Assembly (NCBI GenBank): GCA_008632985.1
Contig: QPGO01000089.1
Coordinates: forward strand, 248,001-312,000
Length of the DNA stretch: 64,000 nt
Direction: 5' to 3'
DNA from: Psammoneis japonica
Taxonomy: Eukaryota
Shown: piece after piece, positions 22,527 to 24,520 of the stretch
Numbering within the stretch: the first letter of the stretch is position 1
How the letters are laid out: each line of letters opens with the position of its first letter
The notes under the pieces: model-generated
Database searches by the model: none
What the model was told of the DNA's origin: nothing
What the model saw: the letters and a program-made list of their open reading frames with translations, nothing else
Program-made: the position numbers and the translations under genes

Positions 22527-24520
22527 CACTCTCCATCGTGAGTCTATGCGTCGACCGTATACCGCGCGCGCTTCGCACACCCGGGTCGCCTCATAGACTC
22601 TCGGAGATGCCAGACGGACGGTGGCCAAAAATGTGTCACCGTGCAATTACGTGATTCGAAAAACGCCCTACAAGGCATTCTACACAAAACATGCCAGAAA
22701 ATATGCCCATCCGACGATGATCGATTTTGCCCTCCCATCAACACCCAATGTCATGCACCGTTCACCAGCCACCTTGTGGCTCACCACAGAAGCGCATGGC
22801 ATCACTGGAACGAACGAAATCGGCAAGTTTTTGATTGCTCTCTGGCTTGGACTGGGTGGGTGAGAAATTGAGTGATTTTCGTCGTGTCTCACACAAGTCA
22901 TTGCACTTCATCACCTCCTTCAGTTCACCTCAACTCGTGCATTGCAGAATTGAAGCACATGTGTTAAAATGCTCGTTGACGTTTGTGTTGGTGCTTTCAT
23001 TGGCGTGTGAGTGGTGCTGCTGCCATTTTATGAAATGCAGTGTCTTCTCTCCATCAAATCGTGATGACTCACTGATTTCATTTTGTCTCCTTGTCAAACA
23101 GATTTCAGAAGAAAATGCGACGCCAGATTGTCCATCAGTTCATGCAGAAGACATGGGTCATGCACAAATCCAAGAATTGAAGCATGACGAGGTGTCTTCA
23201 GCTCACTCTGATGTGGCACGTGCAACTTCGATGTTTTTTCAACTGTTTGCGATGGCAACCTCAATTTCTTTGCATTCCAGGCAAATCGAGAACACGAGTC
23301 GCTCTCCAATGGCCTTGACATGCAGACCAGGTGAGGATCATGACAATCTTGTTCCTTGTGCGTGCATTTCCACTCACCTCTGGGACGGAACACTTCACGC
23401 ATTGTTCACAGGACACAGGGAAGACCGAGAACATCCAGAGCATTTTGCACAGTTGCGATTGAGGGATTGCGTCCCACAGGATTGATTTGTCGCAGGCAAG
23501 ACCTTGTTCACCAGTGGGCTCTGTGCAAGTTGACCAACGTAACACAACATGAAAATCCACAGGTTTGCACGATGCCAGTTTGCACACGAAGGGCTGCAGA
23601 AGCCCTGCGGCAATCAGTTTCAAGGTCAACCGTGTGCACGATTCTCTGACCACTTGCTCGTCCCTTTTTCCAAGGTTTGAAGGCCAAAGCTTGTTGTCTT
23701 GAATGTCAGTGGCCCCCACGAGAATCCCACATGCTTCCGGATTGGAGACGACTTCAACTGGAATCTGAAGAAAATTTCCATCGCTGGTGTTGGCGTGGTC
23801 TCTCCGAAAGCCACAAACGGCGAAGGTTGAGCACACGAGGTCGTGCTGCTTGCACGCTCATCGACACAGTTCGTGTGTTTTCCTGTTTTCTTTCTTGCAG
23901 GAGATGCACAATGAAAGCAATTCGCCTGGTTTGACGTGGAGTAAATCCTCTGCTGGCAATGTGCCTTTTGTACTTCCACCTTGCCCCCGTGAATCTAGAA
24001 GCATGTGACGGACTCCACGTTGCTGATCCCGGCAGGGATCAACAGCGTGTGACGACTCGTTCGTCTCGCTGCATGTTTGAATGGATTGACGAGAACATGT
24101 CTTTGGAGCAAAGTGATTTCGAGCCAAGCTGCTCATTGATGTCAGTTTCTGCGAAAGTGATTTTGTTCCATCGCTGTCTGTCGTTGTCGTCGGAGCAATG
24201 ACGGAACTCAACGCAAGAAAGCCCAGCTTTGTTCTGTCAACAAAACCACCATTCATTGTGTGGTAGAGCCAATTGTTGCTGATGACAGTGTCATGACAAG
24301 ATGCATTGGCGACACGACGGAGCTGCCGCCGAGGCGAGATTTGAATTCCTTCCATGACTCCTCAAGTCGTCAAGAAAATGACCGCGCGTCGCAGTGACAC
24401 ATCCTCTACATACGACCCTGGTACATCGTCCGTCTGGCATCTCCGAGAGTCTATGAGGCGACCCGGGTGTGCAAAGCGCGCGCGGTATACGGTCGACGCA
24501 TAGACTCACGATGGAGAGTG
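22527..24520. mobile_element. Non-autonomous DNA transposon with 94-bp terminal inverted repeats starting CACT; TpA-depleted interior
   Basis: 22527-22620 and the reverse complement of 24427-24520 are identical at 93 of 94 positions. No transposase is recognisable and there is no clean adjacent TSD. Confidence 0.8.

Follow-up and report, generated by a model that had tools for sequence, protein, structure and literature searches.

Results

The element and its surroundings

In the window, by which we mean the whole 64-kb stretch of DNA analysed here, the best inverted repeat is formed by arms at 22527-22623 and 24424-24520. As the preliminary description had it, these terminal inverted repeats (TIRs) are 93/94 identical with a single CG versus TG difference: over the first 94 bases, our alignment of the arms gives one mismatch, at position 48 (C versus T), and the next one at position 95. 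The element and its neighbours are laid out as follows.

21656..22084, minus strand: left neighbouring open frame, reading away from the element, with a putative start (first Met 454 bp out)
22527..22620, plus strand: left TIR, 94 bp, 4/4 TA kept, 14 CG
22621..22710, plus strand: left subterminal graded margin, TA at 22648, 22669, 22681 and 22702, from alignments with the C571 and C9 copies
22711..24400, no strand: TpA-converted interior, 7 TA, TA observed/expected (o/e) 0.06, CG o/e 0.80
22967..23602, plus strand: stretch 68% homologous to a TA-rich fragment on G000:C80, which serves as unconverted reference
23453..23696, minus strand: remnant of the ORF that lies downstream in the 7.7-kb sister copy G000:C161:156325-164035
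23699..24130, minus strand: remnant of the first 141 residues of a transposase-helicase gene (38% to protein P0122, E 2e-28)
24401..24426, minus strand: right subterminal motif, 3/3 TA kept, upstream of the transposase gene and likely on its promoter side
24427..24520, minus strand: right TIR, 94 bp, 4/4 TA kept, 13 CG
24718..26058, plus strand: host ORF with a weak ankyrin match, directed away from the element, its start about 200 bp past the right end

No target-site duplication (TSD) borders the window copy (9/9 mismatches at 9 bp), probably as a result of a later rearrangement of a flank. The final 8 bases of the left flank (22518-22526) reappear some 110 bp inside the right flank (24630-24637), and the first 9 bases of the right flank (24521-24529) match at 8/9 a stretch lying 7 bp before the left end, which possibly reflects a local rearrangement. 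Among the contigs listed from the public runs X1 and X2, there was no empty-site joint for this insertion. Two X1 contigs, representing other alleles that do not have the AT-rich stretch adjoining the insertion, skip 104 and 116 bases within 22284-22401.

An internally deleted member of an AcademH-like family

By searching the genome with the TIR, we retrieved at least 40 places (40 of the 79 candidates were scored), and a degenerate TIR pattern allowing for TA and CG decay found 82 ends, with 0 in the control. Across the 33 elements with both ends, the TSD was exact at 9 bp in 14 and carried 1-2 mismatches in 6, while 13, including the window copy, had none. The 7.7-kb member aligns collinearly with P0122 over residues 4-1675, and this protein of 1,677 aa carries DUF6589 (PF20231), DEAD (PF00270) and Helicase_C (PF00271). 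In a distant relative from the same genome, a DUF6589-like part (atlas score 0.96; DUF6589 on 49% of the cluster) is likewise joined to a helicase. We take DUF6589 to be the Academ transposase domain. The window copy retains codons 2-141 of the gene (24130-23699, minus strand), fused to a piece of the downstream ORF; it is an internal deletion derivative whose transposase gene was read from the right TIR. The window element is, at the level of the family, an internally deleted AcademH-like DNA transposon. In the accessible parts of the published accounts, AcademH elements have 9- or 10-bp TSDs (PMC10045372) and encode a helicase (PMC10045372, PMC10799480). The family described here shares with them the TIRs, the 9-bp TSD and, in its long member, a transposase with DEAD/Helicase_C; unlike them, the window copy holds only the first 141 codons and no TSD, and the host is a diatom whereas those accounts describe AcademH from animals and fungi (PMC10045372, PMC10799480).

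The 9-bp TSD also made us consider a MULE. This identity was rejected: PF10551 had 9 matches in the genome with 0 inside the fetched copies and was found in 0/20 ORFs in and around copies, the MULE domains being located elsewhere in the genome, and the collinearity of the 7.7-kb copy with a DUF6589 and helicase protein also speaks against it. A Pfam search with five interior ORFs of the window element gave no family. The profile search with a 198-aa interior ORF gave one hit made of 16 short stretches, which was discarded as a likely compositional match of Cys-rich sequence.

TA is converted to TG or CA in the interior

The 304 bp of the ends hold 15 TA (4 in each TIR, 4 in 22621-22710 and 3 in 24401-24426) versus 7 in the 1,690-bp interior (Fisher p = 2.5e-8), which bears out the earlier remark that the ends retain TA and many CG while about 22710-24400 is TA-poor. 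TA o/e is 0.06 in the interior versus 0.61 in host DNA (16,500-48,500), and with 0.93 and 0.49 in the two 1-kb flanks no spill of conversion outward is seen.

Read against the C80 fragment, 32 aligned TA sites appear in the window as 15 TG, 15 CA, 1 CG and 1 TA, and the reverse change (TA in the window, converted in the fragment) was seen once. TA is converted to TG or CA about equally on both strands, and A to G and T to C changes are confined to TpA. The fragment itself (L032 4494-5197) is an unconverted interior piece in TA-normal DNA, with no TIR found near it.

In a sister subfamily, conversion is absent or nearly absent from two copies, C94 and C90. With C94 as reference, 12 converted projections had lost 82-92% of their TA (zones 201-1530) and 16-37% of their CG, and positions other than TA and CG mostly differ by a few percent. 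TA to CG was rare (0-4 per alignment), which would be expected if a single hit, A to G on either strand, already removes the TA target. Across 11 copies, CG loss rises with TA loss (rho 0.65, p 0.03) and stays far behind it. At the protein level, 5 of the 9 aligned tyrosines of the window transposase remnant had become Cys or His and 0/9 were still Tyr; in the 7.7-kb copy this change to Cys or His had affected 28 of 50 aligned P0122 tyrosines.

These comparisons bear on two points raised beforehand. The interior might have been an unrelated fragment with no TA-richer relatives; this is not so, the C80 fragment and the C94 and C90 copies being TA-rich. And the hypermutation is indeed tied to a mobile element, the interior being that of a hypermutated transposon with TA-richer relatives, whose ends escaped in place. 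Our searches found no full-length copy in pristine state for the subfamily to which the window element belongs, and the gradient along the element was therefore drawn from the C94 subfamily together with the C9, C571 and C80 relatives.

Other blocks of the window, at 1-16 kb, 49-54 kb and 55.5-57.5 kb, also have a TA o/e near 0 with raised TG and CA. For the host gene at 31816-33126, pennate diatoms (Cylindrotheca, Nitzschia, Amphora and Seminavis) supply the best named relatives, at 40-51% identity. Two long host ORFs (46222-48624 and 34808-36499) with the Ser/Pro/Thr-rich repeats typical of diatom surface proteins are unconverted despite their internal repeats. Elsewhere in the genome, the sister copies C107 (L036/L037), C248 (L043), C97 (L049) and C22 (L038) carry or adjoin other elements, namely a copia RT in C248, gypsy frames at C97 and a DUF7869 ORF in C22, all TA-converted, and these frames stay open since stop codons were lost too. 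Cytosine methyltransferase matches on G000:C301 and C297 (L154-L156), some with stops, lie in TA-erased DNA (TA 0.4-0.6%) and are probably genes of foreign or mobile origin that went through the same process.

TIRs are mostly kept where they face host DNA

In the window copy, the spared zone covers about 120 bp on the right and a graded 180 bp on the left, where positions 22692 and 22704 read TG here and CA in the C571 and C9 copies, so that both were already converted. In seven sisters, the spared right-end zone spans 172-245 bp (197-245 bp in six, 172 bp in C107). The spared zones reach 26-150 bp past the TIR, into sequence without a partner arm. Thus, the view that the mutated zone lies within the element and spares its termini stands as far as the flanks are concerned, and has to be amended at the termini, the spared zone being wider than the TIRs and its left margin graded.

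Base context was rejected as the cause of this sparing. It predicts that 1.4 of the 15 end TA would be kept in the window copy, in a test that is lenient there, its 15 sites being those seen as TA; in the last 150 bp of six sisters, chosen for their spared right end, 42/42 TA were kept where 5.2 were expected.

Then, we compared ends across the family. The expectation that TIRs stay intact in other copies does not hold. First, the outermost TA is converted at 40 of the 82 ends (17 to TG and 23 to CA; counted by eye). Second, among 106 ends typed in the fetched loci, 47 were well aligned (58 were excluded as under the score limit and 1 as a duplicate), and 36 remained once the 11 ends of six pristine copies had been set aside. 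With the two ends of one element not being independent in these statistics, conversion of the end was correlated with flank TA at rho -0.62 (p 5e-5) in the 36 ends and at rho -0.60 with all 47. Third, ends beside DNA with a TA o/e <0.3, a noisy label (the left flanks of C11 and C62 look host-like), had lost 84 of 116 TA versus 35 of 132 beside host-like DNA, and the outermost TA site was converted at 16/17 ends beside converted DNA versus 1/19 beside host DNA.

Short and pristine copies were looked at individually. Four 316-bp copies lying between stretches of host DNA are nearly untouched, as though two margins covered them, or because they are young. In the short copy C32, only the two outermost sites are converted, on the side facing a converted block. 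C94 is pristine amid converted flanks, most simply as a recent arrival. There were also exceptions. The C13 left end lost 6/7 TA beside host DNA, with the nearest outward-reading ORF at 830 bp, and the C62 right end lost 5/7 TA with a flank o/e of 0.39; the right ends of C11 and C97 are spared, and no outward ORF was found beside either. Together these data indicate that the TIRs are not immune, being converted inside converted DNA and mostly kept when facing host DNA. The idea that the ends are protected is only partly borne out: protection depends on the DNA outside and not on the TIR sequence alone.

In a heuristic and post hoc test, an outward-reading ORF started within 560 bp at 11 of 14 spared ends versus 2 of 7 converted ends (p 0.056; p 0.016 without one low-complexity ORF). 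The pattern covers the spared left ends (window, C571, C12 and C62) as well as the converted left end of C13. At either end, the window copy faces an outward ORF (about 200 bp away on the right, 454 bp on the left), which would explain why both ends were spared. Right-type ends faced host DNA in 14/18 cases versus 5/18 for left-type ends (p 0.007), a bias that a pure neighbour model does not predict.

Conversion took place after insertion, in each copy separately

We compared outcomes at doubly hit sites in the 55 pairs formed by 11 sister copies. The same outcome was found at 1364 of 2271 sites (0.60, range 0.46-0.77), where flanking bases alone predict 0.55 and inheritance would give a value near 1. 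With an agreement of 0.60, and at most 0.77 in any of the 55 pairs, inherited interior mutations were rejected; the conversions arose after the last jump, in each copy separately. It follows that converted copies stopped transposing and that selection on mobile ends cannot explain the pattern. The suggestion that only copies with intact ends kept moving is thus not supported, conversions being copy-specific in 55/55 pairs.

A second line of evidence came from the public run X1, possibly made from the very sample that was assembled. Over 22673-22866 and 22907-24452, contigs of this run, of which only the longest were listed, differ from the window at 21 letters; the 17 listed are all transitions and fall on 13 sites, with 4 TG/CA swaps, 1 TA to TG, 7 CG decays (5 in the window and 2 in X1, some of which could be base-calling errors of the assembly) and 1 other. 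Six X1 flank and junction contigs carry 0 substitutions, in flanks where contigs of other alleles also occur and a clean contig is easy to find. This gives 13 substitution sites in 1,740 bp versus 0 in about 1,500 bp (p 3e-4), at a read depth that fits one allele as well as two collapsed ones. Since no other copy as close to the window element as the X1 version was found in the assembly, we read the two sequences as two versions of one insertion that would have diverged in place.

Discussion

Conversion in this AcademH-like element hits TpA, yields TG or CA, followed insertion and has an edge that depends on the surroundings. The reading that we favour, with a probability of roughly 0.6, is that a likely adenine-targeting editor acts on a silenced domain that fades 120-250 bases before active host DNA, and that the ends were likely spared in this way. 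By analogy with Phaeodactylum, repressive chromatin (CG methylation, H3K9/H3K27 methylation) over the transposon would recruit the editor, which would turn the A of TpA into G, probably via inosine, a chemistry borrowed from work on Bigelowiella discussed below, with presumably one hit per TA site. The edge may then be set by the neighbouring promoter, or on the right by the element's own, about one nucleosome plus linker inside the element. The genome has 27 methyltransferase matches and 9 deaminase-family matches, 5 of them with the HxE...PCxxC motif in the frames read; such enzymes are universal, and those bearing the motif are at most candidates for the process. ADAT-like loci lie on G000:C38, C79 and C17.

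A possible, if doubtful, alternative is that the right end, with its TIR and transposase promoter, protects itself as a barrier: a bound factor or an open promoter would keep about 200 bp unconverted, stop conversion from spreading outward and fail only when engulfed. The right 3-TA motif behaves in an all-or-none manner, being intact in 16/29 ends (which include pristine copies), fully converted in 12/29 and mixed in 1 (chi-square p 4e-18), and the distance at which the last converted site lies from a spared right end (197-245 bp in six sisters, 172 bp in C107) would fit a barrier. The right end also lies on the unconverted side in 9 of 10 elements with unlike flanks (p 0.02), but the left flank is clearly converted in only 6 of the 9 polar cases, several of them have no intact TSD, so that deletions may have set the junction, and flank TA compared in pairs, right versus left, did not differ significantly over 23 elements (Wilcoxon p 0.13). 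Within the C94 subfamily, the left end lost 12/19 and 24/39 TA where the right end lost 3/27 and 23/77. Against self-protection, left ends with nearly the same TIR escape conversion when a gene start lies beyond them (window, C571, C12 and C62), and right-type ends beside converted DNA lost 27/27 TA.

A self-protecting promoter end may act jointly with the neighbour effect. In a more speculative form that we consider rather unlikely, the right end would be a portable barrier of about 200 bp with all-or-none behaviour, whose active state blocks a still-running TpA-editing domain and shields both itself and the host gene beyond; hence even the 316-bp copies would mark borders of erased blocks. 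On the same tentative reading, the fact that TG/CA swaps outnumber TA/converted differences between the two versions (4 versus 1) would suggest bursts in which both strands of a TA are hit simultaneously.

Concerning the chemistry, A:T to G:C changes could be the work of an error-prone polymerase, or arise at a thymine lesion where DNA is methylated, instead of being caused by an adenine deaminase; the edge would then be a methylation edge. The covariation of CG decay with TA loss and the presence of several cytosine methyltransferase matches in unconverted DNA of the genome are consistent with this. However, converted blocks show no depletion of AA steps, contrary to what the WA signature of polymerase eta would give, and TA loss reaches 76-90% in copies with a CG loss of only 9-16%, which makes this route unlikely.

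In the RIP of ascomycete fungi, C is changed to T at CpA, which raises TpA and inactivates transposons. The process described here is alike in being a dinucleotide-specific transition hypermutation that inactivates transposons; unlike RIP, which makes TA from CA, it destroys TA, so that TpA falls and CpA and TpG rise, and it shows no clear need for a near-identical partner copy. We consider it very unlikely that the mutator senses repeats by homology, as RIP does, with a weak effect near the limits of shared sequence and on short repeats. Such sensing would fit conversion staying within the element in the window copy and C13, as well as the sparing of the 316-bp copies in host DNA, but the TIRs, the most repeated part with 82 ends, are spared; the window interior is 94% converted though none of its relatives found in the assembly exceeds about 81% past the first 245 bp; C94 and C90, about 90% alike to many sisters, are unconverted; and the Bigelowiella target is single-copy in the accessible text (bioRxiv 10.64898/2026.01.13.699255).

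That the ends are pristine through continued transposition of intact-TIR copies alone, or through gene conversion between arms, is largely refuted and hardly credible: the window arms are 93/94 alike and yet differ from the C571 left arm at three places, as homogenisation would have it, but 0/55 pairs share interior conversions (maximum 0.77), spared zones extend 26-150 bp beyond the TIR where there is no partner arm, and the window copy, with no TSD, exists in two versions diverged in place.

In the accessible literature, we found TpA hypermutation reported only once, in a preprint on an unrelated alga. In Bigelowiella natans, integrated NCLDV and virophage DNA undergoes TpA to TpG/CpA hypermutation (Mettrop et al., bioRxiv 10.64898/2026.01.13.699255). 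In the accessible text of that preprint, DDE and RT domains are among the TpA-poor CDS, an ADAT2-like deaminase is proposed as the cause, and rates from mutation-accumulation lines are about 1000-fold raised and the process ongoing (bioRxiv 10.64898/2026.01.13.699255). As far as that text goes, the two cases share the target and the outcomes, the action on both strands and the restriction to foreign or mobile DNA. They differ in that the substrate is viral inserts in a chlorarachniophyte there and a 2-kb DNA transposon of a pennate diatom here, where conversion is near saturation (82-94%) compared to a TpA o/e of 0.45, CG decays alongside and margins of 120-250 bp are spared. The words "diatom", "edge", "boundar" and "terminal" do not occur in the main text of the preprint as accessible (bioRxiv 10.64898/2026.01.13.699255). 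In the literature within our reach, which takes in few subscription papers, we found no report of TpA hypermutation in a diatom, nor any on TIR boundaries in diatom methylation or on the edges of RIP.

In the pennate diatom Phaeodactylum tricornutum, DNMT5-dependent CG methylation together with H3K9me2/3 and H3K27me3 covers transposons and spares genes (PMC9998398). A repressive domain on transposons of this kind fits the CG decay seen here; TA conversion is absent from the accessible part of that account of the marks (PMC9998398).

The spared ends thus likely mark the edge of a DNA-rewriting defence. New here are the family-wide end test, the copy-specific conversion in this family, the finding of one insertion in two versions that have diverged, and the identification as AcademH-like. 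The family amounts to a natural experiment in how DNA is targeted: one and the same TIR survives or is erased depending on the DNA around it, and each copy was hit after insertion, which, together with the two versions, speaks against selection acting on mobile ends as well as against homology sensing of a simple kind. A silenced domain bounded by its neighbours predicts a methylation or chromatin edge 120-250 bp inside the element. Through this family, the bounds of a DNA-editing defence that has hardly been described become open to clean study, with chromatin as the presumed link. In such genomes, transposon ages estimated from divergence would be badly overestimated.

As a side result, a diatom is seen to harbour an AcademH-like family. 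Two distantly related Academ-like elements, at G000:C273:48436-52728 (L100) and on G000:C259 (L101), lie in TA-poor DNA and keep frames open over about 1,430 codons; in the latter, the helicase is a separate ORF on the opposite strand, within 155-bp inverted repeats. At the other extreme, in L056, L057, L059, L065, L086 and L117 two TIR tips are fused into a derivative of 53-134 bp, and several of these have 9-bp TSDs that are nearly exact; L057 (C37) and L065 (C174) have common flanks and may be alleles or a duplication.
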